A DNA stretch of 54,861 bases from a virus. Taxonomy: Duplodnaviria > Caudoviricetes. Shown piece after piece: positions 12,269 to 39,963 of this stretch. Numbering within the stretch: position 1 is the stretch's first letter; each line of letters opens with the position of its first letter. The stretch lies in the IMG/VR virus record IMGVR_UViG_3300037963_004246, positions 1 through 54,861 of that record. One strand, written 5' to 3'. The notes below the pieces were generated by a model that was not told the origin of the DNA, did no database searches, and saw only the letters and a program-made list of their open reading frames with translations. The translations under genes were made by a program, and so were the position numbers.

Positions 12269-13613
12269 CTCTTGTGCTCTCCATTTCAACGATTTCTCTT
12301 GCTTCGTTGAGGCTGAGAATGCCTGCATTAAAGCCTTTGGTTGCGCGTTCCATCTTTTCGCTTGGAGATTCATCAACCAAATGGTTGAATACTAAGTGCG
12401 GAATATCGGACATAGTGTGTGCAATCCCCAACATCTCTAAGTGCTTTGAGAATAATTCTTTAGCGTGTGTAGCAACCACTACTTGAAGCCTCTTTATGCT
12501 TTGGAAAGACCAAATGTTAGCGTTGTATGTTGCGGCGAAGGTTGAACCTCGCTCTTGACCTGCTGCTACTCGGGGGACTTGCATTACAGCACTTATGTCT
12601 GCGTTTATACTATCTAAGAATCCGGTATTGTCGGGTATTGTGTTTGCTAAGTCTATGTGGTGCATTTCGACATAGTGAGGCAAAATTGGGATTTGGTCGC
12701 CACGCAGACTTCCTAATAGAGTCCCCACTTTGCTAATAATGTGTGAAAGCCTTTCTTGCTGTTCTCCTGGGTCTTGAATGTGTGCTGTAGCGTCTGAATG
12801 AATTGTTATGTATTGCTTTGTAAGGCTGTCTTCAAGGCTAATTCTATTATTTAGTGAGTTATACTTGGCTCTAATTGCTTGTTTTAGTGAACTGAATCTT
12901 GAACCACCCCAAACACCGTATGACTTTCTCCCCATAGTATCAGTAAACCAATTGCTACGGTAGTCTATTCTTAAATGCCAGATTTCATCGTTAGCCCATG
13001 CTTTCTGAGTATATTTTTGTTCTCTTAGGACATAGTAAGCAGGATTGATAATTGGGTTGGCTTCGTCTGCTACGAATGGGTATGTAGCACCGTCTGCTGT
13101 AAATCTTGAACGCTCATCAACGATTGTAATTTGCTTTACGGGGAGGTTTTGTATGTCTGTAATACCTTTACCCATAGTGCCTACAATTTTGTTAATGTCG
13201 TTTCCATAGACCATGAGGTTTCGCATGGCGTTAATCAATATATCATCGAAGTCTAATCTTTCTTCGACCAACTCTTTTATCGCCCTTCGTATTTTGCGAT
13301 TTTTACCCTTAGTGTAGTCAATCATCCAATCATTCGCAGAAAGGCTTACTGCACGAACAGCACCGTTCAATTCGGGGTCTAACTTTAGCATATCATCGTA
13401 AAGGTCGAAGTCGTTATCGTAGTTAGCGTTGAGTTGGAATTGTTCAGTATCACTAACTAAGTCTTTTACGCCAGCGATAGCAGCCATCCCACCTTCAACC
13501 TTTGAACCCACTATGTTTAGGGTAGTCCCATCTTCTATTTCTTGTGTTGCTTCAACTTCAACATCTAAGGTCTTGTATTTCGTCATTTTACGGCAGCTCC
13601 ATTTTGCTCGCAT
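12216..13613 (-). CDS. Portal protein
   Basis: About 460 aa; LMVYGN, EIWHLR..YGVWG.S, C-terminal GILSLNEARE typical of HK97-like portals; start may be 13586. Confidence 0.8.
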   Translation of the reverse strand: MRAKWSCRKMTKYKTLDVEVEATQEIEDGTTLNIVGSKVEGGMAAIAGVKDLVSDTEQFQLNANYDNDFDLYDDMLKLDPELNGAVRAVSLSANDWMIDYTKGKNRKIRRAIKELVEERLDFDDILINAMRNLMVYGNDINKIVGTMGKGITDIQNLPVKQITIVDERSRFTADGATYPFVADEANPIINPAYYVLREQKYTQKAWANDEIWHLRIDYRSNWFTDTMGRKSYGVWGGSRFSSLKQAIRAKYNSLNNRISLEDSLTKQYITIHSDATAHIQDPGEQQERLSHIISKVGTLLGSLRGDQIPILPHYVEMHHIDLANTIPDNTGFLDSINADISAVMQVPRVAAGQERGSTFAATYNANIWSFQSIKRLQVVVATHAKELFSKHLEMLGIAHTMSDIPHLVFNHLVDESPSEKMERATKGFNAGILSLNEAREIVEMESTRDGDQRRNNTVQNRETRE

Positions 13614-15282: not shown

Positions 15283-15405
15283 ATGTTTGAAAGTAGCGTA
15301 AGGTGTAAAGAGTGTGGCTGGTATGCTAAAAGAATGCTACGAGAGAAAGTGCTAAAAGGAGAATGCCCCCACTGTGGAGCATACAAAGGGTTGAAGCCAT
15401 GCTAA
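15283..15405 (+). CDS. Zn-ribbon microprotein
   Basis: 40 aa read by hand, CKECG...CPHCG; fills the gap before the terminase. Confidence 0.6.
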   Translation: MFESSVRCKECGWYAKRMLREKVLKGECPHCGAYKGLKPC

Positions 15406-16877
15406 CCGGATTTAATTTAGAGCGCTCAAAGAGAGACATTCGTTTTTTCTATGAGTGGTGCGGCTATACGTGGGGCGACCACATAGGCGAATGGATGGAT
15501 ATGTTCGGCGATAGAAAAGGTGCTGAAGTGCATCGTGTTTGTATTATTGCACCTCGTGACCACTCAAAATCAACAACTCTTAGAATGAAGATACTTCACC
15601 ACGTTTTATTCGATAAGTGGCGTGATAAGCCCTTTACAGTTTGGTTATTTTCAGCATCTAAGGATTTGGCTGCAAGAAGGCTCGAAGAAATGAAAGAGGA
15701 CTTGAAGCGACATGAAGAATTGCGTAAATTCTTGCATCCCCGTCTTGGGACTAAATTAGAATTGAGGCTTACAAATGGTGCTGTAGTTAGAGCGACGGGT
15801 GTTGGTGCTGCTATTCGTGGTGAGCACCCCGCTGCAATTATTCTTGATGACGTATTAGACGACATGGGCGATATGAACCACGAGGGAATCAGACATTGGT
15901 TTAGAAAGAAAGTGACCCCGATGCTATCCCCCCAAACCAGCATTTATTGTGTTGGAACACCAATGAGCCTAAATGACCTATACCACACCGAAATGTTGGA
16001 AAATAAAACATGGAAATCGGGAACATGGTCTGCTTTGCCTAATTGGGAAGAGCATAGGTCAGACCCATCTGTGGAATTAAAATGTTTGTGGCCTGAATAC
16101 AGGCCCTTGAATTTCTTGCTTGAACAAAAAGAGGCTATGGGTGAATTGGCTTTTGTGCAGGAATATTTGTGTAAGGTGGTTGATGATGAATCTGCTGTCT
16201 ATAAACGTGAGCACTTGCGTAAAAATATGGATATGGAAAAAACAATTGCTTGGGATTCACAAGAAGGGGGGAAGTATGTTATTGGTTTTGACCCAGCACA
16301 AGGTTTGGGTCGTGACTATTCGGTTATGGTCGTTCTTAGGCAGGATGAACAAGGCCAAATACACTTCGTCAATATGTGGCGACGTAATGACTTCAACCCT
16401 GATAAACAGTGTCAGGTAATAGGTGAATGGGTAAATAAATTCGGCAAGTGTCCTCTCGCTGCTGAAGACGTAGGTTTTCAAAGACTTTATCAAAGTCTGT
16501 TAGAAAGAATGGGCTATGTAATAGAATACAGACCGAGCAAGGTAGGGAACAAAGGGCTAAAACAAGGATTGTTGAATAGGGTTCGTGTTTGGTTCGAGCA
16601 GGGAAAGGTTCATTGGCCTTATGGGGATATTGAAACCCGTAATGTGGTAAATCAATTGCTCGATGAGTTCGATGCTCATGTTTGGAAGGCTGGCGATATT
16701 CACGATGTAGGAAAACACAACGATACTGTTATGGCTTTTGCTCACGCCATAGACCAATTCGATTCATTGAAGGGAGAAACAGTAACCTTCGCAAGTAGTA
16801 TAGATAAAGGAGAATGGATGGGTGGAAGACAAGCGCAACCCAGCCGAAACAACTCCCGCTACCCAGGATTATTTTAG
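15399..16877 (+). CDS. terL: Terminase large subunit
   Basis: Walker A-like APRDHSKST, Walker B IILDD, VGTP motif, nuclease IGFDPA and HNDTVMA. Confidence 0.92.
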   Translation: MLTGFNLERSKRDIRFFYEWCGYTWGDHIGEWMDMFGDRKGAEVHRVCIIAPRDHSKSTTLRMKILHHVLFDKWRDKPFTVWLFSASKDLAARRLEEMKEDLKRHEELRKFLHPRLGTKLELRLTNGAVVRATGVGAAIRGEHPAAIILDDVLDDMGDMNHEGIRHWFRKKVTPMLSPQTSIYCVGTPMSLNDLYHTEMLENKTWKSGTWSALPNWEEHRSDPSVELKCLWPEYRPLNFLLEQKEAMGELAFVQEYLCKVVDDESAVYKREHLRKNMDMEKTIAWDSQEGGKYVIGFDPAQGLGRDYSVMVVLRQDEQGQIHFVNMWRRNDFNPDKQCQVIGEWVNKFGKCPLAAEDVGFQRLYQSLLERMGYVIEYRPSKVGNKGLKQGLLNRVRVWFEQGKVHWPYGDIETRNVVNQLLDEFDAHVWKAGDIHDVGKHNDTVMAFAHAIDQFDSLKGETVTFASSIDKGEWMGGRQAQPSRNNSRYPGLF

Positions 16878-17409
16878 TGTGTCGAGCAGCACTGTGGGAT
16901 AAGCCGAAGGGGGGAAGGTAATATGCTGCCCGACTATTACAGCGTGTGCTGCAGACTACTTAAGCATTTTCTTATATAGTAGCCAAGAAAAAATTTTCTC
17001 AAAAATTCCTGCAGGCTGTGGGCGTTGTAAGATACGTCGGTTTTTCGATTTTTGGCGACTTACTATATAAGGTTGACGCCACCAACCTTAATAAGGGGCA
17101 TCCCCATTTTCACTTTGCCCCGCTACGGACGGGGAAGTGGTAGGCGTGTAGTATAACTATACGTTGTATTGGGTGAAAACCTTCGTGAAGGGTTAGTATT
17201 CCATGTATGGGTTGAATCGGCTTCGCAATGAATCGCTAACATTTCATTCCGAAGATAAAATGCGGGTCGGTGTTTGTGGTCGCGAATGAAATAAACGTCA
17301 ATACTTCGGCGGGATTTCCCAACAAAAAATCCACCGGAAGGGTCTTCGGATGCGACAAAAAAATAGACAAAACCACAAACGAATAAAAGGTAAAATGGAA
17401 GTGGAAATC

Positions 17410-18741: not shown

Positions 18742-18850
18742 GAGCACTGAGCCTGCGCAGCCTGAGGCTGACAGCAGAAGCTGTCTGAGAAAAAACTGTG
18801 CAGAAAAACTGTGCAGAAACGCTGACCCAGAAAAACTGACCTAAAGAGTT
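18742..18850. repeat. SAG-dense A-tract cluster 1
   Basis: GCAGCCTGAGGCTG and tandem AAAAACTGTGCAG units; gives T-tracts on the minus strand downstream of a minus-strand gene. Confidence 0.7.
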
Positions 18851-19024
18851 TCACTCTTTCGTGTAGGTCGCATCAACCCTGAGTTTTTTACCGCACACTG
18901 GGCACTGTATTTCGTCGCCGAAGTGGTATGTGCTGAAAGATTCATCTGGTTGAAGAACTGCTAAATTTATTCTGGTGCGTCCTGAACTGCTTTTAAGCAA
19001 ACAACATCTGACATATAATCTCAT
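18851..19024 (-). CDS. Small Cys-containing protein
   Basis: 57 aa by hand, MRLYVRCC...QCPVCGKKL; ATGA overlap. Confidence 0.55.
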   Translation of the reverse strand: MRLYVRCCLLKSSSGRTRINLAVLQPDESFSTYHFGDEIQCPVCGKKLRVDATYTKE

Positions 19025-19371
19025 CTAATCGCCTCTGCCCCTTCTTTCTGCATCTTCCATTCCTCAAAATCGAATTCTGGTAGGCTTGCCTCGATTGGTA
19101 TCTCGTCAATTACTGCACTTGCGAATACTGTATTACAAGCACCCCTGATTCCAAAATGTCTGCATATTATAAATTCCTGAAGTGCCGGCGCTGGCGGGTA
19201 AAACCTCGTTGTGTATAGCACCATTGGGTAATCCTCATTACCGTGTGCGTTGGGGTCGCTGCACCCGCAACTGAATTGCACTTCTCCAACCGACTTCTGG
19301 TTGACGTTCACTGTTATTGGCTTCTGGGAATGAATCTCCCATATCATGGCCTCAAAGTCTTTTTGCTCCAT
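19021..19371 (-). CDS. Hypothetical protein
   Basis: Start MEQKDF about 25 nt below a TATA box (leaderless-type). Confidence 0.6.
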   Translation of the reverse strand: MEQKDFEAMIWEIHSQKPITVNVNQKSVGEVQFSCGCSDPNAHGNEDYPMVLYTTRFYPPAPALQEFIICRHFGIRGACNTVFASAVIDEIPIEASLPEFDFEEWKMQKEGAEAIR

Positions 19372-19388
19372 GTTACTGAATTCTCCAC

Positions 19389-19448
19389 CTACTATATAAG
19401 GGTAGCGACCCTGCAGACTAAAGCCTGCAGAATACCAACTATTATAAG
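19389..19448. promoter_or_regulatory. Divergent promoter pair, each CTGCAG-N10-TATA
   Basis: Minus: CAG GGTCGCTACC CTTATATAGTAG; plus: CAG AATACCAACT ATTATAAG. Confidence 0.75.
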
Positions 19449-19517
19449 CCCCTATGCGGATGGGGACTTGAAGCGGGGACATCGCTATGGTGGTAGGTCG
19501 GTAAGGGAGGCTGAAAA

Positions 19518-20027
19518 ATGTCAGAAAAAACTAAAGTTAGTAGACCGGCCAGACTGCATGATTACCGTAAGAAGGTTGAGGTTGTCGGGACACGGTGTAT
19601 CCGTTCAGCGTATTTCGCAACCGGACACCCAAGCACCGCCGTTGAGGCTGCATTAACAAAGTGGTTAGATGAGATTGAAGAATTAGTAGCGGACTTCGAG
19701 GCTCCTTCATGGGCTAAGAAGATACGAGACTGCGAACCACTATGTGTGTCTACAGGCGGATATAGTTCAGTACACACGCTTGCACTATGGCAAGTGGCAG
19801 GGTATGCCAATCAGATTTCCGATGGGTGCTTCCCTATTCGCAGCGATATTCACGCAATGATACTTTCAATCAGCGTGAAGGGTGCAGCCTCCGACTACGC
19901 ATGGATAGCATTCCAGCATGGGGATGCGATTAAGTGGGTTGAGACTTGCACACGTATGCTTACATTGCTACACGGACAACCGCAGCTTCTTACCGGTATA
20001 GACCCATTTTCAGAGTGCGGCCCTTGA
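19518..20027 (+). CDS. Hypothetical protein
   Basis: 169 aa with GGAGG RBS and upstream TATA. Confidence 0.6.
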   Translation: MSEKTKVSRPARLHDYRKKVEVVGTRCIRSAYFATGHPSTAVEAALTKWLDEIEELVADFEAPSWAKKIRDCEPLCVSTGGYSSVHTLALWQVAGYANQISDGCFPIRSDIHAMILSISVKGAASDYAWIAFQHGDAIKWVETCTRMLTLLHGQPQLLTGIDPFSECGP

Positions 20028-20138
20028 TTGAATAATCAGGGATATTCGGTCAGATTTACGTAACCCCCCTATTGGATTGCAGGCTGGTAGGCGGGGGATA
20101 AATTCATACCCTGAAATACAACTCGTATTAAGGTAACC

Positions 20139-20205
20139 TCTCAAAAGAGACTGAGTAAAAAGAGCCTGAGAAAAGAGAATCTGAAAAAAGAGACTGTAAA
20201 ATCAG
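20139..20205. repeat. SAG-dense A-tract cluster 2
   Basis: Degenerate AAAAGAG(A)..CTG units of about 14 bp between convergent genes. Confidence 0.65.
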
Positions 20206-20375
20206 GTGCTTATTGAATCAGCCACATATCGAGATTTACATTCATGAGAGCAAAAATACAGCGTTAAGAAAATATTCTCATCAACAAAACTGATATCTGT
20301 GCTGACCAATTCAGCCCTGCACATAAAGCAGTATATCGGGCGAGTCTTCAAGTTAAACTGTTCAATCAGATTCAT
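20202..20375 (-). CDS. TRASH/YHS-like Zn-finger microprotein
   Basis: 57 aa by hand; YCFMC...YFCSHEC. Confidence 0.6.
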   Translation of the reverse strand: MNLIEQFNLKTRPIYCFMCRAELVSTDISFVDENIFLTLYFCSHECKSRYVADSIST

Positions 20376-20377
20376 AA

Positions 20378-20668
20378 TCAGCCCTCCAATTCCAGGTTGT
20401 CTTCCCAGACTTTAGCACAGCAGGCTAAGAATAACAGCTTGTTTTCGGGAAACTCACCATCCAGCATACCTTCAAGCAGCATCATAAGAACAGCGGTTGT
20501 TTCGTTATCCTGTTCATTATCAGTTACATATCCTTGAGGGGGTCGCCACAGGTTTAACATAGGAGTTACCCAATCGAGAGGCTCTTTGGAGCCAGCCAAG
20601 ATAGTCCTGGACTTTTCGAGCGCTTCGTAATTCCAGTCATTCGGTGAGACTTCTCTATACGCGGGCAT
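20378..20668 (-). CDS. Hypothetical protein
   Basis: Start MPAYRE, 2 nt after the upstream stop. Confidence 0.55.
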   Translation of the reverse strand: MPAYREVSPNDWNYEALEKSRTILAGSKEPLDWVTPMLNLWRPPQGYVTDNEQDNETTAVLMMLLEGMLDGEFPENKLLFLACCAKVWEDNLELEG

Positions 20669-20670
20669 AA

Positions 20671-20871
20671 TCAGAGCCCCCCTTCCCAATCTCGCTTCAA
20701 ACAGTCGTTGCATTGAGTATTCCAATACGCAGCGGCGTTACCGCAGAATTCAAAGGAGTCGCAAGGTATTGAGTTACAAAGGCAGAGAGAAGTCCCAGAG
20801 GCCGGATTGCAGCACCCACACCAGATTGTGTGTGAGCACTTGTCGCAGATTTTTTGTTCACAGTCGGACAT
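20671..20871 (-). CDS. Cys-rich microprotein
   Basis: MSDCEQKICDKC...; 12 Cys in 66 aa. Confidence 0.55.
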   Translation of the reverse strand: MSDCEQKICDKCSHTIWCGCCNPASGTSLCLCNSIPCDSFEFCGNAAAYWNTQCNDCLKRDWEGGL

Positions 20872-20996
20872 CAGCATCCCCCGTTGAGTTTCCAAGTGAG
20901 GCATCGGGCCGAGCAAAATCGGCCAGACACATCAATCAGATTAGTGCAGTCAGGGTGTCGGCATCGGGGGCGGGCTACGGGTGCAGCTTTTTCCAT
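20871..20996 (-). CDS. Zn-finger microprotein
   Basis: MEKAAPVARPRCRHPDC...FCSARC; ATG about 25 nt below TATA. Confidence 0.55.
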   Translation of the reverse strand: MEKAAPVARPRCRHPDCTNLIDVSGRFCSARCLTWKLNGGC

Positions 20997-21014
20997 AGAC
21001 AGCCTATATTTCAT

Positions 21015-21039
21015 CTACTATATAAGGGTTGGTATCCTG
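21015..21039 (-). promoter_or_regulatory. CAG-N10-TATA promoter
   Basis: CAG GATACCAACC CTTATATAGTAG. Confidence 0.75.
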
Positions 21040-21110
21040 AAGCCTGAGCCTGCAGTTTACCAAAGACTATAAACCCGCATCCCATCTTATAGGCGGGGTT
21101 CGTTTCCAAC

Positions 21111-21290
21111 CAGCCTGGAGGCTGCAGCCTGAGGCTGGAGGCTGAAAAAAGCAGCCTGGTAGAAAAAACCTGCGTAAAAAATGCTGCAGAAAAACCTGGC
21201 AGGAGCATTCTGCCGAGAAAAAGCTCAAAAAGCAGCCTCGCCTGGCAGGTCGGCGTTTTAAACAGCAACCTGACTCAGCGGGCCGAGAAA
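21111..21290. repeat. SAG-dense A-tract cluster 3
   Basis: Contains the exact GCAGCCTGAGGCTG of cluster 1, then A5-6 tracts separated by CAG/CTG/GAG/CTC. Confidence 0.7.
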
Positions 21291-21372
21291 ATATCTCATA
21301 GACCAGCGCAGGGTAGGTATCCTCACAGTTATCCGCTGTTAGAGGACACACTCGCTGGTGCAGACCGTATCG

Positions 21373-21534
21373 CTAAATCTGTCTGAAAGAGGGCCGCAGC
21401 CATGCTGGCTCACGAGCGCTACCAGATGTGAGTTCCTTCTGAATCTCCTTCTCAAGAGCACGATTTAGCAGGAGTTTATTTAGCCCCTCACAGGCAGTGA
21501 ATTTGAATTCAGGCATTCTGATACCGCTGTTCAT
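21373..21534 (-). CDS. Small hypothetical protein
   Basis: 53 aa by hand; ATGA overlap. Confidence 0.45.
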   Translation of the reverse strand: MNSGIRMPEFKFTACEGLNKLLLNRALEKEIQKELTSGSAREPAWLRPSFRQI

Positions 21535-22187
21535 TCCGACTCCTCCCCAGGAAATCTGATGTCGTATTTACTCATACACTTACTGCAATAGAACTGACTG
21601 TGATGAGCAGCACGATTACAGCAGGTCGGTTGTGAAAAGCCTGGCCTGTTCATCTCACACATACGCTCGACATCAACATCTCGTATGAAGCGACTGTAAT
21701 CTACACCGCTGGGGACTCCAGGCCACTCATGAGGGTCATATATCCACCCTCGTGTTAGAGCATGGAGTGCAGCCCTCGGCTTATGCAGGTCGTATTCTTT
21801 ACTGCCTGGAATTTCAGCATAACCTATGAAAGTCCAATGCGAGCCTGGCTGACCCCACTCGTTGAACAGACCCATTGATTGTTCTGTTTCACGCCTGAGT
21901 TGTTCAGGAGGCATACACATATTCGCTGGGTTTTCTTCAGCCCACCATTTTTCCTCATCTTCAGCAGAATAATTTTCAAGGGGCTCATCCCATGTTTCTG
22001 GGGAACAGCGAGCATAACGAGAAGCAGGGTCGTGAAACTGCTCATACTTTTTCTGGTGGTCAGCCCACCATTCTTCAGTATTGATTACAGTATGTTCCCT
22101 GTTGCTGGTAGGGGAGATGAAAGTCCACTCCCAATTGAACATCTGTTTTCGCATCTGCTCGACAGTCATAACTATGGTTCTCATCAA
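21531..22187 (-). CDS. Hypothetical protein
   Basis: 218 aa, Trp-rich, C-terminal Cys cluster. Confidence 0.6.
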   Translation of the reverse strand: MMRTIVMTVEQMRKQMFNWEWTFISPTSNREHTVINTEEWWADHQKKYEQFHDPASRYARCSPETWDEPLENYSAEDEEKWWAEENPANMCMPPEQLRRETEQSMGLFNEWGQPGSHWTFIGYAEIPGSKEYDLHKPRAALHALTRGWIYDPHEWPGVPSGVDYSRFIRDVDVERMCEMNRPGFSQPTCCNRAAHHSQFYCSKCMSKYDIRFPGEESE

Positions 22188-22558
22188 GCATCACCTGCCT
22201 TCCATAACTCATCGTGCAGTATTATTTCGGAGGAAAACATCCAGAAGAATAAGTCCCACTCGATAGCACCACCCTGACCTTGCGAGTTATATTCTTCATA
22301 ACTCGGATTATTCAGGCAATACATTGAGTCTAACGAATGAGCACTCGTGCCGGAGACTCTTGTAAAGTATGTGGGGTTCAGGCATAATTGGTCGAGTATA
22401 GGTTCATCTGTAAAGGGATTCTGCGGGTGCGAGTATAGCATTTTATCCTGCATAACAGCGGGCTTTTCAGTTTCCCATGTGCGTCTGATTGTTCTCAGTC
22501 TCATGGGTCGGGTTAAAAATTCAGGGCGTTGGTTTTCAGTTTGTTTTTGTTGAGTCAT
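22184..22558 (-). CDS. Hypothetical protein
   Basis: 124 aa with GGAGA RBS. Confidence 0.6.
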   Translation of the reverse strand: MTQQKQTENQRPEFLTRPMRLRTIRRTWETEKPAVMQDKMLYSHPQNPFTDEPILDQLCLNPTYFTRVSGTSAHSLDSMYCLNNPSYEEYNSQGQGGAIEWDLFFWMFSSEIILHDELWKAGDA

Positions 22559-22576
22559 ATTAAATTCTCCAATTGG

Positions 22577-22745
22577 TGGAGTGAGGCGGAATCTGCAAGG
22601 TTGCAGGTATCCTTCGTGAAGGGGTTTTGCTGATGCTGGGATGTATCAGTCTTGTGCAGTTTTAACCACCTCACTCCTTAATGTATTCTGCCCCCGTAGA
22701 GTTTCCCCTACGGGAGCATTACGTAAATCAGCAGATCTCATTGCA
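22577..22745 (-). ncRNA. Candidate structured intergenic RNA
   Basis: Stem GCTCCCGTAG/CTACGGGGGC and long stem GGAGTGAGGTGG/CCGCCTCACTCC enclosing further hairpins; no family recognised. Confidence 0.4.
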
Positions 22746-22756
22746 GGGTAACCCAA

Positions 22757-23236
22757 TCAGGATTTCTTTGCAACAGGCTTCTTAGCAGTCTTAGCCTTAG
22801 CAGGAGTCTTTGCAGACTTCTTAGCCGCAGGTTTCTTAGCCGCAGGCTTCTTAGCCTTAGCCTCAGATGGGGTCTTCTCCTTCTTTGGCTCGGTCTTGAC
22901 TACTCCGAATTCAGCAACAACTTTGTTAGCCTCAATGATAGGCAGGGATGCACCCAGACCGTAAGACTCAGATGTTGAAACCACCTTAAGTCGGCGGCTC
23001 ACGGCAGCAGTAGTAGCGCGCTTGCTGGATTTGTATTCCTCACGGTTGAGGATAATATCCATAGAGTGCAAGTGCTGCAGTGCATCTACGAGGTGTTGCT
23101 TAACTCTCGCTTGGTCAGCCTTAGTTAGCGTCTCCAATTGAGCTTTGTATTGTCCCAGCACGAATGCGTCTGTAGCGAATTGCTGCACACGGTTAATGCT
23201 GTTAGCACACTGTTTCGATAGAGTTTGGTTCTTCAC
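22757..23236 (-). CDS. Basic protein with histone-H1-like K/A/P tail
   Basis: C-terminal KAKKPAAKKPAAKKSAKTPAKAKTAKKPVAKKS; GGTGA RBS. Confidence 0.65.
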   Translation of the reverse strand: MKNQTLSKQCANSINRVQQFATDAFVLGQYKAQLETLTKADQARVKQHLVDALQHLHSMDIILNREEYKSSKRATTAAVSRRLKVVSTSESYGLGASLPIIEANKVVAEFGVVKTEPKKEKTPSEAKAKKPAAKKPAAKKSAKTPAKAKTAKKPVAKKS

Positions 23237-23336
23237 AGAACATCACCAACCCTGCCTTTCGCTGAGTCGTATCCCAGAACGAGTGCGAGGGATGGGTCGG
23301 CGTTCCCAGATTTTCGCATGGTGAGGGTAGCAAGTC

Positions 23337-23361
23337 CTACTATATATACTATGGCATTCTG
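23337..23361 (-). promoter_or_regulatory. CAG-N10-TATA promoter
   Basis: CAG AATGCCATAG TATATATAGTAG. Confidence 0.7.
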
Positions 23362-23389
23362 AAGGCTGCAGCCGCCAGATTGGATTCTG

Positions 23390-23749
23390 TCAGATTGCAT
23401 TTTGAACCTCCTGTATAGAGTAAATAACTTCCTCAAAAGAATGCTCCAATTCACATTCCTCACAAAATAAACCTGATGAGGTGGGGATAAGACGAGATAC
23501 TTTACCGTCAGCAGAAAATACTTTAACCTGATGAGCGGGCTTACCATAGGAGTCTGGATAATGACCCTGCTTTATTAAAGCAGTCTCCACCGAAGAGAAT
23601 TGATACACATACTGAACCCTATCGCTGACGAAATCATCTGGGAGTATTCTCCAAGTCCACAGTTTCTTATGTGGGTCTGGCCAGCGAATCTCCCAAAAAA
23701 CAAATTTATTTACAGCACCGCAAAGAGAACACTCCGTTTGAAATCTCAT
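23390..23749 (-). CDS. Hypothetical Zn-binding protein
   Basis: Likely start MRFQTECSLCG; second CEEC pair. Confidence 0.55.
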   Translation of the reverse strand: MRFQTECSLCGAVNKFVFWEIRWPDPHKKLWTWRILPDDFVSDRVQYVYQFSSVETALIKQGHYPDSYGKPAHQVKVFSADGKVSRLIPTSSGLFCEECELEHSFEEVIYSIQEVQNAI

Positions 23750-23950
23750 AGGTTCGTGCTCCTCGGGTTGGGGCATCGGCAGTATTGGTCTGTTCCATGC
23801 TCTTCCAGACACCACTTACAACCTCTCCAATCATATACGCTCATTCTTCTTCCTCCCACTCTATATCGTTAATGCTCGCATCACCGTTTCTGACCTGTTG
23901 CCAGAACTCCTTACATATCGTTGCGGAGACTCGTATGAAGGAGTCTGGGT

Positions 23951-24877
23951 TCATTCTTCCTCCTCCGATTCAGCATATTCCATAACACGCCTTACAGCCT
24001 TTCCGGTGTCGCCTGATACTTTGACTATGTAATTCTTATCTCCTTTAAGAGCCTTAAGCCAAGAGCCTATGTATGCAGTTAAATTATTACGAGAAGTATA
24101 ATCAACACCAAATTGAGCACAAATAAGAGCAGCACCCATCTCAGCAATTAATTCTTCCTGTGCGTATTCCCTGTCGCCAAAGACTCCCATCTTACGCTTA
24201 AAGTGAGGACCTGTTGAATGTATTACTTCGTGAGCCCAAGTATTCATACGCTCTTCGACAGAAGTAAATCTTGAGTCTTTCGGCATATTTATTAAATTAC
24301 GAGATGGGGAATAGAACGCTGAATCGCCGCCCCTCTTGATTGTAATATCATTATCTTCACAGTATTTGTAAATGACTGATAACATAGCCTCTTCACTTTC
24401 AGTAATAGGAATATCAGGGTGGTCGTGTTCGAGTGGCGGCATCCCTGTTTGGTCGCGGTTAAATACAGCCCACCACTTCTTCCAGAATATACGCTTGAGC
24501 GGGTATGTTCCGTCTGCTTGCTTAGGCTGGTCTTTATCAGGAACCTCTTTAGTATTCCAAAAGAAAACCATAGAAGAAGTCTCGCCGGACTTCACTCCAT
24601 ACCATTCAGTATTTTCGCCAATCTGACCTAATGCTTTGTTGTGTTGAGCAGACGCATCCGACCAGTTTTTGTATGTCCCCCATTGGTTGGAGTCATAAGA
24701 TTGAGAAGCGGCAATCAGTGGTAATATGAATTGATTATTACCAGAATATTCGTTCCCAGAATCTATATTATAATGTCTTCCGAGTATAACCCAGCCTCGT
24801 TCCCAGGGTGGGCATCCAGATTCTAATTCAGTAATCAGATGTTGAGTTAATTCTTGTTCATAGTCCCGTTTCGGCAT
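23951..24877 (-). CDS. ardC: ArdC-like antirestriction protein (ssDNA-binding domain plus zincin-like domain)
   Basis: PPWERGW, YSGNN, WGTYKNW, VFNRDQT, AFYSP..I.MP, HEVIHSTG, YAQEELIAE, YIGSWL motifs. Confidence 0.85.
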   Translation of the reverse strand: MPKRDYEQELTQHLITELESGCPPWERGWVILGRHYNIDSGNEYSGNNQFILPLIAASQSYDSNQWGTYKNWSDASAQHNKALGQIGENTEWYGVKSGETSSMVFFWNTKEVPDKDQPKQADGTYPLKRIFWKKWWAVFNRDQTGMPPLEHDHPDIPITESEEAMLSVIYKYCEDNDITIKRGGDSAFYSPSRNLINMPKDSRFTSVEERMNTWAHEVIHSTGPHFKRKMGVFGDREYAQEELIAEMGAALICAQFGVDYTSRNNLTAYIGSWLKALKGDKNYIVKVSGDTGKAVRRVMEYAESEEEE

Positions 24878-24903
24878 TTCGCATCAAAGTGAGCAAATCA
24901 TAA

Positions 24904-24928
24904 CTACTATATAAGACCTATTACCCTG
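24904..24928 (-). promoter_or_regulatory. CAG-N10-TATA promoter of ardC
   Basis: CAG GGTAATAGGT CTTATATAGTAG. Confidence 0.75.
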
Positions 24929-24952
24929 CAGATTGCGCCCTGTAATCTGGTA

Positions 24953-25294
24953 TCACCATTCTCCTTCTAATTGCGCTCTATCGGAGTGGATATCTCCTGA
25001 CAGGTATGTATCGCTCCATACCCCACATTCTTTACAGCGAAGAGACGCAGCAAAAACCAGACGAGGTTGCTTAGACAGTAAATTATTTTGTATGTGAAAA
25101 ACATACGGCTCATGCTCTATCCTGATTTCCCAATCGTGCGGATAAACCTGCATCTTGTGCTGGTGAGGTGGAAATGGTATTCTTGCTCCTCTTTGAGTAA
25201 AGACTAATGTAGTCTCTAACCATGTTTGAGCCTCACACACCTCCCAGATGCTCTTCGCGTTCGGTATTATGTCCTCATATTTCAGGCTGTTCAT
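24953..25294 (-). CDS. Hypothetical protein
   Basis: 113 aa, GGAGG upstream, CKECG motif. Confidence 0.55.
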   Translation of the reverse strand: MNSLKYEDIIPNAKSIWEVCEAQTWLETTLVFTQRGARIPFPPHQHKMQVYPHDWEIRIEHEPYVFHIQNNLLSKQPRLVFAASLRCKECGVWSDTYLSGDIHSDRAQLEGEW

Positions 25295-25360
25295 TTCTTC
25301 TCAGTCCTCCCTTCGCGGAGCAGCAGGACCGCCCCGCCTAAAGAGAAATAAATCACCAAG

Positions 25361-25418
25361 AATATAAAGCCTTCGATTCTGCAGCGTATAGTATTCAGAT
25401 TACTAATGTTTATAGACC
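25361..25418. promoter_or_regulatory. Divergent promoter pair, each CAG-N10-TATA
   Basis: Minus: CAG AATCGAAGGC TTTATATT; plus: CAG ATTACTAATG TTTATAGACC. Confidence 0.75.
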
Positions 25419-25438
25419 GACCGGACAAGTCCTGTTCA

Positions 25439-25729
25439 ATGTCGGATTTGACGATTGACGATGTGAAGAATTGGATGCAAACTGCTTCCTATGAAGACCT
25501 GACGGGCCTCGTTTCTACATATAATATATGTATGAAAAACGCTCGTAATCTTCAAGGGCAGTTAAATAGAATGGCTTTATCTGTTGGAGATAGAGTTTGG
25601 TTAGCCCATAGCAAAAGAGGGGCTATCGAAGTAGTTATCGAAGACCTGCGAAGGACTAAGGCTACTGTAAGAGAAGATTGCGGACAAGGCTGGACTTGCC
25701 CTATCGCCTCGCTTTCCCCTATGGAGTGA
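25439..25729 (+). CDS. Hypothetical protein, SH3-like C-terminus
   Basis: LSVGDRVW...KATV...W pattern; ATG just below TATA. Confidence 0.6.
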   Translation: MSDLTIDDVKNWMQTASYEDLTGLVSTYNICMKNARNLQGQLNRMALSVGDRVWLAHSKRGAIEVVIEDLRRTKATVREDCGQGWTCPIASLSPME

Positions 25730-25735
25730 TTATGA

Positions 25736-25945
25736 GTGAGTAAGAAACATCATCAAGTGTTCTGCCCCTCTTGCGGCCATAGAGCCAGATACATTCAAGT
25801 TAAGACACCAAAAAGAGGCTGTCCTTATACTACTTGCGACAGGTTCAAACAAACCCTAACAGTATATTCTCACACCGAGAAGAAAGCGTGGGTCTGGCCT
25901 TGTAATCCTCGCGCACCTAATGGGACAGGGAGGATATGGGCATGA
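25736..25945 (+). CDS. Small Zn-ribbon protein
   Basis: CPSCG...CPYTTC; GGAGTGA RBS. Confidence 0.55.
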   Translation: MSKKHHQVFCPSCGHRARYIQVKTPKRGCPYTTCDRFKQTLTVYSHTEKKAWVWPCNPRAPNGTGRIWA

Positions 25946-26697
25946 CTGAAAACCACAAACCACCTCGTTATGGGTTTAAGTTATCAGCACAATACATAAT
26001 ATATCCTTTGATTGAATCTGAGCCAGGAAAAATGGAAATCAGGTGTGAAAGAATCATTGATAACTCAGGAGATTTATTGCCTAATGTATCTTTTGAGCAC
26101 ATGAAATCATCTATGGGTTGCGAGTTGGCTGAAATTGTAGTCGAGCACCCCTCCTTTTGGTATCTTAGCCCTAATACTGACCAACAAGAAGCAGAACATA
26201 CCTGCAACAATGTATTTTGGTGTGATGAGGAGTATCTTCTTAAGTATTCAGGTCCAGACAAAACAATAAAAGAGGAAGTTATGGATACTAATTGGGTAAT
26301 GATGAGGCTTATCGGTATATCAAACAGACTCGTTCAAAGATTAGAATTACCTTACAGGCTCGCTGACGAAAGTAATATGGTTAGAGGACCTGCTGTTATA
26401 GAATTATGTTCTGAAGAGGAAACACAAGCAGGGTTTATGGTGGAATGCCAGCAATTAGAGCATATTATAGCGAGTGCAGTATTACAACAATACATAACAA
26501 TTCAGATGTGGGGGTTAGACCCTAACTGTCAGGCCCTCTTTGACGAGGTAGAAAACGGAGAAGAAATAGAAATAACAACATCTTTCAGGAATTTCACCCA
26601 GCAACCGACATTGGAGAATCATTCGGACCTCGTTAAGAAGATAAACGAATTATCTAATACTCAAGGCACAGGTGATATTAAGGAGGAATTGGGTTGA
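25936..26697 (+). CDS. Acidic hypothetical protein
   Basis: 253-aa ORF coupled to the upstream gene. Confidence 0.6.
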   Translation: MGMTENHKPPRYGFKLSAQYIIYPLIESEPGKMEIRCERIIDNSGDLLPNVSFEHMKSSMGCELAEIVVEHPSFWYLSPNTDQQEAEHTCNNVFWCDEEYLLKYSGPDKTIKEEVMDTNWVMMRLIGISNRLVQRLELPYRLADESNMVRGPAVIELCSEEETQAGFMVECQQLEHIIASAVLQQYITIQMWGLDPNCQALFDEVENGEEIEITTSFRNFTQQPTLENHSDLVKKINELSNTQGTGDIKEELG

Positions 26698-26791
26698 GCC
26701 GTAAAACAATCTGTAAAATTTCACACCCTCGCATAGCCGGAGAAACAAAGTGCCGTGTCTGCGGTCAGCGTTATTCAGAGGAGGAAGAGTG

Positions 26792-27022
26792 ATGGCTCAC
26801 GAGTGCGACCATTGGGACTGTCCTGATTGCCTAAGTCTAAGTCCTCTTTTTGGCTCTATTAGACCCTGTTATTTTTGTTCCCATGAGTTTTACCTCAAAA
26901 AGATGTTTGAGGTGGTGGATACAGAAAATAATTTAGATGTGCTCGCCTGTAAAGAGTGCGCCGACATACTGCTTTCTGAGAAATCAGAATCAAAAGGTAT
27001 ATTAACCGATGGAACGAGATGA
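26792..27022 (+). CDS. Cys-rich hypothetical protein
   Basis: Three CxxC pairs; GAGGAGG RBS. Confidence 0.55.
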   Translation: MAHECDHWDCPDCLSLSPLFGSIRPCYFCSHEFYLKKMFEVVDTENNLDVLACKECADILLSEKSESKGILTDGTR

Positions 27023-27329
27023 TTTTATGGCGTGGAACGACAGACCCAATAGAATATCAGGCAAAAAGTCCAAGAGGCGTAATGACGGCCTAAGAATCAG
27101 ACTTGTTAAAATACTACGGGAACACCCAGACGGTCTGCTTACCAGCCAAGTAGTGTATTGGCTCAAAGAATCAGGTTGGAAGCGTGTAGGCTCTATTCAT
27201 CAGATAGGTAATGTGTTAAGACTCACTCCAGGTATCGTTAGTGAGGATACCGGAAACCACCAAGCAAAATGTCTGTGGAAGATTGCAGACGAGGAAGCAT
27301 GGAATGAATACATCGAGGAATTACTATGA
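27009..27329 (+). CDS. Winged-helix protein (paralog family)
   Basis: LRIRLVKILREHPDGLLTSQV...GSIHQIGNVLRLTPGI. Confidence 0.6.
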   Translation: MERDDFMAWNDRPNRISGKKSKRRNDGLRIRLVKILREHPDGLLTSQVVYWLKESGWKRVGSIHQIGNVLRLTPGIVSEDTGNHQAKCLWKIADEEAWNEYIEELL

Positions 27330-27553
27330 GATACAAAATAATATGTAAATGCAATGGAGTAAATACCATACGCTCAGACGAAAGATTACACAACTCCTTT
27401 GCAGTGTTTGCTGCAGGCCCTAAAGATATAGACTACGACTCGGATTCTGAAAGACAATACAATAGCACAATTGAGGGTTATTTTTGCGAGAAATGCTTCA
27501 AGTCTTTTTCTTATTCTGAGGTATTAAGTATGATTAAGGAGGATAAAGAGTGA
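27326..27553 (+). CDS. Small hypothetical protein
   Basis: CKC...CEKC; coupled. Confidence 0.5.
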   Translation: MRYKIICKCNGVNTIRSDERLHNSFAVFAAGPKDIDYDSDSERQYNSTIEGYFCEKCFKSFSYSEVLSMIKEDKE

Positions 27554-28080
27554 ATATATTTGTATTATCTGAAGACCCTATAACTGCAGCCAAAATGCTG
27601 TGCGACAAGCACATACCAAAAATGACTGTCGAGTCCTACCAAATGTTAGGCAGCGCAGCCAGACGACACGGTGCTACTGATGACCAGATGCCGCTCACAA
27701 AATCAGGCAAACCGCTCATCGGTGGATACCCTCACCACCCATGCACTCGCTGGGCTGGAGATAGCAGGGATAACTACTTATGGTTGGCTCACCACGCAGC
27801 CGCTCAAGCAGAAGAATATGAAAAGCGGTTCGGTAAAGAGCATTTCTGTGCAGAACCAATAGAACAATTATACTCTCTCGCACATCTAATACCAGAAGAT
27901 TACTCCACCCTAACCCCTTTTGCTCTCGCTATGCCCGACGAGTATAAAGAGTTTGACGGTTATGTTTATGATACTGCGTGGTCTGAAATGGCTGTTTTAG
28001 CATACAGGGCTTATTATCACTCAAAGACCTTCGCCAGATGGGAAAGAGGGCGAAATGCCCCTGCGTGGTGGTCAGCATGA
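27550..28080 (+). CDS. Pyrimidine-dimer DNA glycosylase/endonuclease V-like protein
   Basis: MNIF.L..DP..AA...CDKH..KM..E..QML, HPCT.W, NY.WL, EY..RFGK.H, AMP..YK, AYR.YY. Confidence 0.75.
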   Translation: MNIFVLSEDPITAAKMLCDKHIPKMTVESYQMLGSAARRHGATDDQMPLTKSGKPLIGGYPHHPCTRWAGDSRDNYLWLAHHAAAQAEEYEKRFGKEHFCAEPIEQLYSLAHLIPEDYSTLTPFALAMPDEYKEFDGYVYDTAWSEMAVLAYRAYYHSKTFARWERGRNAPAWWSA

Positions 28081-28901
28081 TGGTTAGAGTATTATCCCAC
28101 GAGGGGGAAACATTTGTTCTGTTCAAGGCCTGTGCGGAGGACTTGCTGTTCGCTACGCCTCACACCATGCACGATAAGTCAAGGCAGGGTAAATATCATT
28201 CTCGGCTCGTATTCAAACACTTCACCATAACAGGCAGACAAAACATGGTTGATTTTATGACTAACTTTGAGCCTTCAGTCCCCTGGAATGAGGAATGGAG
28301 GGCTTTCGTGACCTGCTTACAGCATGATTGGACTGATTTTGTTAAGAGGTTTATGTTGGCCGAACCGAGATGGATGCTCGGAAAGGTAAAAAATGTGCAT
28401 GAGCCGTTCCCAGAAATAACTAAGATATATGTCTGCAAAAATCATTTCCCAGACAGGGAAAAATTTGGTGTATTACCTGCAGTCGAGATGTGTCCGTTCC
28501 CTGTGAGGCGGCGTGGGGGAGAAGTAAAGTTAGTGGATTCTCTCGTCAAGAGAGAAACAAAACATGAGGTGTCTGTTTTTACCACAGAAATATCGAGATG
28601 GATTACCTTTAGGAGAGATTTCTGCAAACCACAAAACGCAGACCTTTATGATGACTTTATAGCATTAAGAATACCTGAGGCAGGTTTGCCTTATGATTCA
28701 GACTACCCTCCATGCTTCACACCTCTTCTCGACCCACTATATGAGGACAGCGACACCCATGAAATCATAGAGTTATTGTCCTCAACCTTCCACACTAATA
28801 ATTATTTCAATTCTTTATCTAACAGTCAAAAAGAAATAATCGCAGCACAGCGGGGCGATTACGATAATTATTTCAATTCTCATAAGGGGTATTTACGATG
28901 A
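28077..28901 (+). CDS. Hypothetical protein
   Basis: About 274 aa; ATGA overlap. Confidence 0.6.
   Translation: MMVRVLSHEGETFVLFKACAEDLLFATPHTMHDKSRQGKYHSRLVFKHFTITGRQNMVDFMTNFEPSVPWNEEWRAFVTCLQHDWTDFVKRFMLAEPRWMLGKVKNVHEPFPEITKIYVCKNHFPDREKFGVLPAVEMCPFPVRRRGGEVKLVDSLVKRETKHEVSVFTTEISRWITFRRDFCKPQNADLYDDFIALRIPEAGLPYDSDYPPCFTPLLDPLYEDSDTHEIIELLSSTFHTNNYFNSLSNSQKEIIAAQRGDYDNYFNSHKGYLR
28797..28848 (-). promoter_or_regulatory. 52-bp dispersed element, copy 2 (inside a CDS 3' end)
   Basis: Reverse strand GTGCTGCGATTATTTCTTTTTGA-N-AAAGAATTGAAATAATTA. Confidence 0.5.
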
Positions 28902-29004
28902 AATGTCCGATGTGCAACAGACATAGATTAACTGCGTGTAAGACAGACACATTTACGAGGGTTACCTGTTTAGATTGTTGTTGGAGCGAAGACCTATGAA
29001 TTAT

Positions 29005-29027
29005 CAGATTACCAATGTTTATAGACC
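29005..29027 (+). promoter_or_regulatory. CAG-N10-TATA promoter
   Basis: CAG ATTACCAATG TTTATAGACC, one mismatch from 25396-25418. Confidence 0.75.
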
Positions 29028-29047
29028 CCTTAAATTTAGGTGATATT

Positions 29048-29682: not shown

Positions 29683-29793
29683 AAGTAAAGCAGAAAGAAT
29701 AGCCAGAAGAAAAGGCAAGACTGAAAGAAAAGCAGAAAGAAGAAGGCTCGCTTATATCGAGAAGAAAAATAACAGAGGTAGTAAGTGGTAATT

Positions 29794-30132
29794 ATGAGTC
29801 GAGCATGGTATCATTCAACATCAGGCGACCCTGCCGAAGACTATTCCCCTCATTGGATAGACGACTACCCTCGATGCCCTCATTGTGATAGGGCAGATAC
29901 TATGGAGTGGCCGACAACCAATTTTTCTGATTACGGAGTCGAGGAATGTAATTGTATGATTATAGAGTTTGCAGATGGAACGTGGGCTAACGAGAATGAC
30001 TTGATGCACCTGAAGGTTGCTTGCACTCGCTGCCACAAAACACTTCCCCCTCATACATACAAACAACATCTTGACCCTGATGACCCAATCCACCAATGCC
30101 CTCACGAAGGAGATGAGATTAATGAAGATTAG
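29794..30132 (+). CDS. Zn-binding hypothetical protein
   Basis: CPHC and CTRC motifs. Confidence 0.55.
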   Translation: MSRAWYHSTSGDPAEDYSPHWIDDYPRCPHCDRADTMEWPTTNFSDYGVEECNCMIIEFADGTWANENDLMHLKVACTRCHKTLPPHTYKQHLDPDDPIHQCPHEGDEINED

Positions 30133-35565: not shown

Positions 35566-36000
35566 GTGGCGAAACCATACAAGCGAAAGGCCTCGAGTTC
35601 ATGTGGTAATAATTCTCGTTTGAGAAGAATGATATTAGAGATTCTGTTTTACTATGGGCCTATGACTCGATATGAGATAATGTCTAAATTATCTTATTGG
35701 GATAACAAAGTGCAGCCCAGCGCACAAGTGCTTTCCAGCCTTCTAACAAAGACTCAAGCCATTGTTCAGGTTGGAACAGACAAAGTAGCATCAAATACAG
35801 GTCGCATGAAAACAAAACCTACTTTCGATATAGACAGGAGATACATAGAAGAAACCAGCGATATAATATATTGTCTGCCTAAGTCATCTCTTTATGCCTA
35901 TGAAAAGAGTAGAGCCGTGATGTGTAATTCATGTAAGAGATTCAGAATCCCCTGGGAAGATGAAACCTGCCTACGTTGTATCAGAACGGATGATTTATAG
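35566..36000 (+). CDS. Winged-helix protein with C-terminal Zn ribbon
   Basis: RLRRMILEILFYYGPMTRYEI...PSAQVLSSLL; CNSC...CLRC. Confidence 0.6.
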   Translation: MAKPYKRKASSSCGNNSRLRRMILEILFYYGPMTRYEIMSKLSYWDNKVQPSAQVLSSLLTKTQAIVQVGTDKVASNTGRMKTKPTFDIDRRYIEETSDIIYCLPKSSLYAYEKSRAVMCNSCKRFRIPWEDETCLRCIRTDDL

Positions 36001-36022
36001 ACCTATGAAAAGACGAAGCCAC

Positions 36023-39803: not shown

Positions 39804-39804
39804 T

Positions 39805-39963
39805 ATGGATTGGGACTGTCCTGTTTGCGACGGCAACATGACTCACACGCATTCAGACCTTTATGACGTTCACTATGCCTGCGAAGTCTGCGGTTCAAGA
39901 TTAGTCGTTGATTCGGCTGTTTTGAATAGCCCGAAGGTTAATGAACCGCAACGTAGGAGTTGA
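39805..39963 (+). CDS. Zn-ribbon microprotein
   Basis: CPVCDG...CEVCG; GGTGA RBS. Confidence 0.55.
   Translation: MDWDCPVCDGNMTHTHSDLYDVHYACEVCGSRLVVDSAVLNSPKVNEPQRRS

Follow-up and report, generated by a model that had tools for sequence, protein, structure and literature searches.

In T4-type phages, promoter-early stem-loop (PeSL) cassettes mediate modular gene shuffling. [quoted passage not shown] SIRV2 and many other archaeal viruses have virus-specific sequences around their early promoters, which have been used for predicting anti-defence genes (PMC11065993). In Sulfolobus, UV-inducible promoters need the hexanucleotide A(N)TTTC, located at -44 to -39; other elements, upstream of weak BREs, are the ARA box and the PF1088 (TFB-RF1) site (PMC5817253), and Sta1 is a host activator on SIRV1 promoters (PMC1635249). 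The DNA analysed here, called the window at its full length, is the complete IMG/VR virus record IMGVR_UViG_3300037963_004246 (54,861 nt, linear, about 81% complete by estimate). At eight promoter-like sites between 19389 and 29029 the triplet CAG is found exactly 10 nt before a TATA-containing 12-mer. There is good support for these being a distinct class of promoters, marked by an upstream box in fixed phase, and on balance the evidence leans towards the CAG box being a cis element for a putative transcription factor, which would define a co-regulated promoter class on mobile promoter cassettes.

The eight sites had been listed in an earlier note on this DNA and all are found in the sequence with their positions correct. 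On the minus strand CAG stands 10 nt (N10) before CTTATATAGTAG at 19413, 21039 and 24928, before TATATATAGTAG at 23361 and before TTTATATTCTTG at 25381; on the plus strand it precedes ATTATAAG at 19428 and TTTATAGACC at 25396 and 29005. All eight have an A/T-rich TATA box of about 8 bp (TTATATAG, TATATATA, TTTATATT, ATTATAAG or TTTATAGA). An open reading frame (ORF) lies downstream of every site, at least seven having been claimed to have a clear downstream gene, and the description of a fixed CAG and spacing with differing N10 spacers is borne out, the spacing being N10 at eight of eight and the information low in the spacers. The pattern CAG-N11-WTATA is matched 13 times in the window, where 4.04 matches are expected, and none of 100 shuffles reached 13; eight of the matches are the named intergenic sites, and the other five read as inside ORFs, at about chance level. 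The longer YTKCAG-N11-WTATA gives six matches in the window against 0.33 expected. The lengths of the CAG-to-TATA spacer show a peak at 10 and a minor second peak at 24. When sites are collected by a strict TATA core ([CT]TTATA[TG]A), CAG lies at N10 in 5 of 14 in the window and in 2 of 166 in the comparison set of 80 terminase-anchored relatives (Fisher p = 2.6e-5). Counting by TATA family, CAG is at N10 in four of the five intergenic TATAGTAG boxes (a sixth match, 47701(-), is within a gene), in two of four TTATAGACC boxes, with a further one having it at N9 (35982+), and in one of two TTATAAGCC boxes. An unbiased repeat search of 16.8–31.8 kb returned the cassettes as the top direct-repeat families, D1–D3 (32–34 nt, four to five copies each) and D20 (24 nt, 96% identity between 25395–25418 and 29004–29027). 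Promoter-like boxes without the CAG box are present at 16971(+), 17072(-), 37612(+) and 45215(+). The earlier note had named boxes of this kind as lacking CAG, and indeed 17072(-) and 37612(+) are without CAG at N10 and 16971(+) has CTGCAG at N16.

A longer box, yTkCAGrrT, has the CAG as its 3′ half. This had been overlooked in the earlier note, as had the symmetric dyad, the repeated mobile promoter cassette and the replacement of the G in a second cassette lineage. The cassette is about 45 bp long, the box being followed by 7 variable nt, the TATA box and often GTAG. The proximal hexamer is CTGCAG at four of the eight window sites and CTTCAG, ATTCAG or TATCAG at the rest, and the letters after CAG are rrT (GGT, GAT, AAT, ATT). 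An information profile of 13 sites from the window and two relatives, L138 and L139, chosen by a scan demanding CAG at N10, shows high values at T-x-CAG and TATA and low ones in N7/N8, the invariance of CAG in this profile being by selection because the scan demanded it. The 13 proximal boxes are CTGCAG in seven cases and CTTCAG, ATTCAG, TATCAG, CTCCAG or GTGCAG in six. A distal hexamer, CTGCAG-like at six of the eight sites, lies 8 nt (once 7 nt) further upstream. In the divergent pairs the distal hexamer of each promoter is the proximal hexamer of its partner, both pairs being arranged as TATA-N10-CTGCAG-N8-(C/A)T(G/T)CAG-N10-TATA with a symmetric hexamer-N8-hexamer dyad at the centre. In the single promoters the distal hexamer is degenerate, and they look like relics of former divergent pairs.

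From their geometry the eight sites look like archaeal promoters of the TBP/TFB type with predicted start sites that would make most of the units leaderless. At six of the eight an ATG with an ORF is positioned 29–31 nt after the start of the 12-mer, 25–27 nt past the centre of the TATA box, which fits archaeal leaderless promoters. The remaining sites, 25381(-) and 19428(+), have leaders of about 45–50 nt ending in GGGAGG. At 24928(-) the ATG at this distance (d = 31) opens an ORF of 8 aa only, and the ArdC-like ORF begins at d = 38. In the leader of 19428(+), which precedes the gene 19518–20027, conservation in an alignment of four lineages sets in about 26 nt past the TATA box, in keeping with a transcription start at that point. 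With the start assumed at or beside the ATG, CAG would fall at about -44 to -42, and the full box would occupy about -47 to -39, immediately upstream of the BRE. The last 6–7 nt before the TATA box vary (accaacc, cgctacc, aataggt and others). At the other end of the units, tandem arrays of 13–15-nt units bearing A5/T5 (AAAAACTGTGCAG, AAAAGAGACTGAGA, CCTGGCAGAAAAA) are found at 18791–18841, 20143–20196 and 21155–21202, each at the 3′ end of a minus-strand unit; they have T4–T6 runs on the minus strand and are probably multiple oligo-T terminators. The arrays also hold CTG...CAG words, like the promoter box, and comparable arrays are present in L138, L139 and the relative L030.

The promoters occupy the region between the morphogenesis and the replication modules, which by its gene content is hypervariable and consists mostly of small orphan genes. 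When the 34 ORFs downstream of the terminase gene were compared with 80 terminase-anchored loci, three had a homolog, in one locus each: 19518–20027 in L030 (47%), the ArdC-like ORF in L045 (30%) and 30629–31105 in L062 (39%). A protein search of viral contigs gave no relative of the ArdC-like protein. Alignment of the homologs of 19518–20027 gave L030 as the sole match in viral contigs and none in genome contigs, and the gene had no match in the phage collection. Searching with its invariant leader found four more contigs (L140, L138, L139 and L141), of which L140 is the same virus as the window. The divergent promoters 19413(-) and 19428(+), pair A, are kept in L138 with seven changes between the TATA boxes, none of them in a CAG: two fall in N8, four in the right N10, and a single one turns the right hexamer from CTGCAG into CTCCAG. 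The left gene of L138 has been swapped for an unrelated one, which again starts 31 nt after the 12-mer. In L139 and L141 the ortholog of 19518–20027 is just 31% identical; its promoter there is CTGCAG-N10-TATATAAG, with a spacer that shares three of ten letters with that of the window. Three TATA-like boxes of L139 were found by the scan demanding CAG at N10. In L139 and L141 there is also a second divergent pair, in which each side has its CAG at N10, and a fourth box, read by eye, has it at N11. At the L030 ortholog, 47% identical, the TATA boxes of the divergent pair are closer together by 10 bp and the CAG box is missing, and CAGRDT-N8-TTWWRTAG has no match on either strand of four relatives that are 96–100% complete. 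The CAG is thus kept at orthologous or related promoters in L138 and L139 despite differing spacers, as the earlier note would have it, and its presence there together with its absence from L030 and the four near-complete relatives means that the box is neither a general promoter consensus nor private to one genome.

Matches to CAG-N10-CTTATATAGTAG and to CTGCAG-N8-YTKCAG-N11-WTATA elsewhere in the viral collection (26 and 29, single-copy) lie in unrelated DNA, with the exception of L003, and were rejected as relatives. The leader used for the search has at 19467–19517 a run of 27 nt (CTATGGTGGTAGGTCGGTAAGGGAGG plus one) that is invariant across the four lineages (the window, L138, L139 and L030), in which the proteins are 31–47% identical, and ahead of this run is a hairpin of 4 bp in which one change is compensatory. 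This leader may be a translational or autoregulatory operator.

Variation closer to the window was seen in contigs from sequencing runs (X3, X8 and X20), X20 being an RNA library; parts without coverage in X20 carry no meaning. A contig of X20 joins 24925 to 25379 with six letters, CTGCAG, that fit both sides. The relative behind this joint is without 24926–25378, a segment between two CTGCAG boxes that comprises the gene 24953–25294 plus its promoter; the promoter of the ArdC-like gene is thereby paired directly with 25396(+) and the arrangement TATA-N10-hexamer-N8-hexamer-N10-TATA is retained. In X3, a contig is the same as the window across 19200–21171 bar six letters, all in 21030–21048: four are in N10, one is the first letter of the hexamer and one is in the spacer, with none in CTG or TATA. 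Further joints remove or replace single small genes at 20201–20399, 23427–23734 and 25733–25980. The cassettes thus head exchangeable gene units and, with the same cassette preceding unrelated genes, act as recombination joints.

A second lineage of cassettes is found in L039, L052, L053, L061 and L151, where ACGCTTGCGAAG-CAGAAT-N7-(T/C)TTAA(G/A)TAGTAG is repeated. CAGAAT and its spacing are identical to those of three window sites, and GTAG after the TATA box is common to both lineages, while the sequence upstream of CAGAAT is wholly different between the two. The conserved unit in the second lineage is the whole 18-mer.

As to the virus itself, Pfam matches were obtained for a portal protein (12216–13613(-)), the large terminase (15363–16877(+)), a collagen-repeat protein of 1523 aa, a family-B DNA polymerase (PolB, 42889–45207), an RFC-like AAA+ ATPase (36707–37618) and a Cpn10/Cpn60 (GroES/GroEL) pair (46423–48286), and also for a PD-(D/E)XK nuclease, an ERCC4-HhH nuclease and a dNMP-kinase-like protein. 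Among deposited phages the longest PolB matches are to haloarchaeal tailed viruses, and the terminase matches are also halovirus. The viral collection holds 487 relatives of the terminase, many of ocean origin, and the sequencing runs that contain DNA of the window are marine, seawater or estuary metagenomes. Halovirus-like morphogenesis genes, a replication block with PolB, clamp-loader-like ATPase and chaperonin, and a marine source are traits of the magrovirus type, and the printed description of the gene content of magroviruses, which are assigned to Marine Group II archaea, fits the window (PMC5434244). From this likeness in gene content, set against the printed description alone, we infer that the window is a magrovirus-like archaeal tailed virus with an archaeal host.

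In the reading that we favour, the box yTkCAGrrT would be bound by a sequence-specific transcription factor, viral or host-encoded, that helps or gates the recruitment of TFB/TBP, so that the units headed by cassettes would share a single expression class. For each divergent pair, two boxes at a distance of 14 bp would make up a dyad serving both directions. Each cassette stands before a short predicted transcription unit made of one or several small genes, mostly orphans, and also acts as a joint at which recombination adds, removes or swaps such units. The earlier note had proposed a second, temporal promoter class set up by a factor or a modified A near the BRE/TFB site and possibly switched on by products of a gene island; an element at fixed spacing upstream of the BRE does mark a subset of promoters, the timing and the island switch are conjectural, base modification is unsupported, and no winged helix-turn-helix protein, a kind mentioned in the note, was found in the island. 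Several points weigh against a factor-binding CAG element. The eight window sites were chosen through CAG itself, and the natural variants that spare CAG are too few for significance alone. One X20 contig spans a divergent promoter, so that its library may contain DNA. When cassettes of the second lineage are chosen by the upstream block alone, the triplet is CAG in 17 of 26, CAT in five, CAA in three and CAC in one, and orthologous cassettes of that lineage differ at the G; with the G replaced in 9 of 26 it is not essential there, which counts against CAG being indispensable. No factor was found, none of the 70 scanned ORFs being above the Pfam cut-off for a helix-turn-helix (HTH) family. The sole HTH candidate by Pfam, the ORF 42662–42937, HTH_23-like below the threshold, was rejected as the factor, having orthologs in three of the four relatives without the box. 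The product of 19518–20027, the one conserved gene of the region, was also rejected, its model being all-helical (mean predicted local distance difference test score, pLDDT, 76.8) with no PDB match at E <= 0.001. A further candidate, 25439–25729, matched unnamed clusters only.

It is rather unlikely that the box is instead an extra core-promoter contact for the basal machinery, either a TFB paralogue of host or virus or an associated factor, giving a class like those of alternative sigma factors. Such a contact would suit the fixed phase, which is N10 in all eight sites and is kept in L138, L139 and the second lineage, and the short, asymmetric form of the box (T-x-CAGrrT), which has no long palindrome; that viruses with unrelated early genes have the box in common would also suit a reader on the host side. 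The box is at least 5 bp beyond the BRE, however, and to our knowledge TFB does not reach beyond that element. No TFB, TBP or TFE family match was found among the 70 scanned ORFs, and a basal contact sits poorly with the box being missing from the other promoter-like boxes inspected in the virus and from the four near-complete relatives. Decidedly doubtful is the proposal that Poseidoniales-type transcription has in CAGrrT a third element of the core promoter, for which the reader would be a dedicated paralogue of TFB or a cofactor bound to TFB, from host or virus. Were it true, the viruses would divide their genes into promoter classes by switching basal factors, as an archaeal counterpart to the cascades of sigma factors, and mobile cassettes would let any newly acquired gene join the class. 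The cassettes could also be copies of one mobile promoter unit in which CAG by itself does nothing and the letters in common are residual ancestry. They are the top repeat families, pairs of them are 77–96% identical, they are located at recombination joints, the X3 variant suggests conversion between copies, and the second lineage tolerates replacement of the G. Decay has been uneven, however, the spacers being near random where T-x-CAG and TATA are retained; in L139 the CAG stays at N10 beside spacers that do not align with those of the window, and simple descent sits poorly with the complete difference upstream of CAGAAT between the two lineages, so that we consider shared ancestry without function improbable.

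The favoured transcription-factor element also has to be set against two readings of quite another kind. CTGCAG might be the target of a PstI-like methyltransferase or restriction enzyme, with a methylated A tuning the promoters. The full palindrome is present in 7 of the 13 proximal boxes, and CTGCAG is over-represented in 16.9–29.1 kb, which has 14 of the 26 sites in the window (binomial p = 4e-4). This is nevertheless very improbable, as is the modified A of the earlier note: CAG alone, and not the full CTGCAG, is invariant, 6 of the 13 boxes departing from the palindrome, none of the 70 scanned ORFs matches a methyltransferase family, and the site is not avoided, with 26 observed in the window against 30.7 expected from sub-words. 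That the host is a bacterium and the CAG box a -35-like element of bacterial promoters is scarcely credible. The two chaperonins belong to the GroEL/GroES type of bacteria, and two relatives of the terminase (L143 and L144, 58–59% identical) are on contigs, one of 61 kb, of metagenome-assembled genomes labelled Rhodobiaceae and Opitutales, although these are probably mis-binned viral contigs, a caution for host assignment. Sites of the sigma-70 type are not enriched in 16.8–29.4 kb (19 against 20.7 expected) and none of the 19 coincides with any of the eight CAG-TATA promoters; a distance of 29–31 nt from TATA to ATG with no Shine–Dalgarno site agrees with archaeal leaderless starts; the affinities of PolB, terminase and portal are with haloarchaeal tailed viruses; the window encodes an RFC-like ATPase and an ERCC4-HhH nuclease; and GroEL in magrovirus-type viruses is already in print (PMC5434244).

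The individual cassettes are arranged as follows, the hexamers of the single minus-strand cassettes being read on that strand. Divergent pair A extends over 19389–19448, with the minus 12-mer CTTATATAGTAG at 19389–19400, N10 at 19401–19410, CTGCAG at 19411–19416 and N8 at 19417–19424, and on its plus side (19425–19448) CTGCAG at 19425–19430, N10 at 19431–19440 and ATTATAAG at 19441–19448; the minus gene is an ORF of 116 aa whose ATG, at 19371, is 29 nt after the start of the 12-mer. The cassette of 21039(-) (21015–21073) has its 12-mer at 21015–21026, N10 at 21027–21036, CTTCAG at 21037–21042, a 7-nt spacer and a distal CTGCAG at 21050–21055, and a TATA-like CTATAAA occupies the mirror position at 21067–21073(+) with no ORF behind it. 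This stretch, 21012–21076, is 77% identical to 19386–19451. Its gene begins with the ATG at 20996(-) (d = 30) and is a Cys-rich ORF of 41 aa; two very Cys-rich small ORFs (41 and 77 aa; 20671–20996) lie behind this promoter, and weak zinc-ribbon matches were seen in further small ORFs at 18851–19024, 29785–30132 and 39760–39963. At 23361(-) (23337–23378) TATATATAGTAG at 23337–23348 is followed upstream by N10, CTTCAG at 23359–23364, N8 including CTGCAG at 23366–23371, and a degenerate distal hexamer at 23373–23378; the ATG at 23319(-) (d = 29) opens a 28-aa ORF abutting one of 159 aa (22757–23236). The cassette of 24928(-) (24904–24945) has the 12-mer at 24904–24915, N10, CTGCAG at 24926–24931, N8 and a distal TTACAG at 24940–24945, and precedes the minus-strand gene 23951–24877, which encodes ArdC-N and zincin-peptidase domains. 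Divergent pair B (25357–25420) runs from the minus TTTATATTCTTG at 25357–25368 through N10, CTGCAG at 25379–25384, N8, ATTCAG at 25393–25398 and N10 to TTTATAGACCGA at 25409–25420; its minus gene, 24953–25294, has the leader of about 45 nt with GGGAGG and its plus gene, an ORF of 96 aa, starts at the ATG at 25439 (d = 30). At 29005(+) (29002–29029) TATCAG at 29002–29007 and N10 precede TTTATAGACCCC at 29018–29029, the distal hexamer being unrecognisable, and a 110-aa ORF starts at the ATG at 29048(+) (d = 30).

A near-match of uncertain standing, CTGCAG-N9-CTTCAG-N10-TATATTCACTCT at 27550–27594(-), is inside the start of a plus-strand DenV-like gene; no ATG is found within 130 nt downstream, and several contigs of relatives end at 27528–27636, around it. 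This would make it a relic or an antisense cassette, or else a chance match. The gene itself, for a DenV-like pyrimidine-dimer glycosylase (27475–27805), has a contig depth of 83 in run X8, with 2–15 elsewhere, and many contigs break at its edges; it appears to be common to other viruses. At 35982–36003, in coding DNA 28 nt ahead of an internal ATG of the dNMP-kinase-like gene, CAGAAC-N6-TTTATAGACC may be a further cassette one base shorter, or chance.

Other features were seen outside the cassettes. Two boxes of the TATATAGTA type, 16971(+) and 17072(-), face each other (16971–17083), and between them is an element of about 40 nt (16986–17040), also found after the terminase gene of L030, that ends in a hairpin and T5 at 17021–17045 and may be a small RNA or other conserved non-coding signal. 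It is followed by a non-coding stretch of about 350 nt (17051–17401), rich in short G/C hairpins and 86% identical to L138:1–348; no Rfam family was matched anywhere in the window. Palindromes of GGTTACAAAAAC...GTTTTTGTAACC occur at least twice in 10 of 81 sequences (the window and the 80 terminase-anchored loci), with up to 96 half-sites in 21 kb. In L044, L090, L059, L060, L066, L089 and others they are intergenic, about 20 nt upstream of TATA boxes, and it is at least as likely that these TACAAAAAC palindromes are bidirectional oligo-T terminators as that they are lineage-specific operators. At 13878(+) and 4601(-) a promoter-like CTTTAAGT box, with an ATG 31–32 nt beyond it, stands before two genes, the one that precedes the terminase gene and the one of 1523 aa, and recurs at the orthologous place in L029 (L029:5237); this 8-mer is the quoted TATA-bearing core of the HF2 class I repeats (PMC8707807).

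In the surface ocean magrovirus-like viruses are abundant; the viruses and their hosts are alike uncultured. For these viruses the cassette would be a sequence handle for delimiting transcription units; it predicts a set of co-regulated genes, probably early or anti-defence, with the ArdC-like gene among them, and explains the swapping of orphan genes between genomes. The box would also be a defined cis element with which to fish out a transcription factor of an uncultured archaeal system.

Compared with the systems described, the window is like HF2 in being an archaeal tailed virus with repeated intergenic cassettes in which blocks of identical bases stand amid variable positions, one block holding the TATA box and another, alpha in HF2, lying upstream of the BRE, with cassette classes that differ by genome region (PMC8707807). 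Positions are conserved in related viruses in HF2 (PMC8707807) and in some of the relatives here. Intergenic copies with conserved and variable blocks, one of these upstream of the BRE, are present in the window, and the position of the cassette is kept in L138 and at the L139 ortholog of 19518–20027 and is absent in L030. The HF2 repeats, however, are 56–58 bp long and have a conserved start-site block and leadered transcripts, whereas the units of the window are mostly leaderless and the divergent pairs symmetric; the mutation of alpha left basal activity unchanged in HF2 (PMC8707807), and promoter activity in the window is predicted from sequence. The likeness is one of architecture, no sequence likeness having been seen and none compared. 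With the SIRV2 type the window shares small, fast-evolving orphan genes that have a common conserved sequence around the BRE and TATA box, a motif that depends on the lineage, in some cases with inverted repeats proposed as sites for a regulator (PMC11065993), and an anti-restriction-like gene (ArdC-N and zincin) is among those headed by cassettes. Those viruses are crenarchaeal, there are expression data, and a strong purine-rich BRE is within the conserved part (PMC11065993), whereas in the window it is the sequence upstream of the BRE that is conserved.

The elements adjacent to the BRE in other archaeal promoters are likewise short, in fixed phase, just upstream of the BRE (about -39 to -47) and confined to a subset of promoters, and are proposed to act via a factor that recruits TFB (PMC5817253). 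The position is the same in the window, with CAG at N10 in all eight promoters and absent from the other promoter-like boxes, but the sequence is another one, and the box is a candidate for such an element. The resemblance to the PeSLs of T4-type phages lies in a hyperplastic region where the units of orphan genes each have a repeated promoter cassette to themselves, and in recombination between cassettes that adds or deletes units, as at the 24925–25379 joint and in the gene swapped behind the promoter in L138. PeSLs combine bacterial sigma-70 early promoters with a stem-loop terminator, whereas the promoters of the window are of the archaeal TATA type and oligo-T arrays end the units, so that the cassettes work like PeSLs and yet are outside the PeSL family. 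A literature search found nothing joining "magrovirus" with "promoter", and the word "promoter" is absent from the magrovirus papers searched. Lineage-specific regulatory boxes at early promoters are already known from haloarchaeal and crenarchaeal viruses, and what is new here is an instance in the magrovirus-like group.

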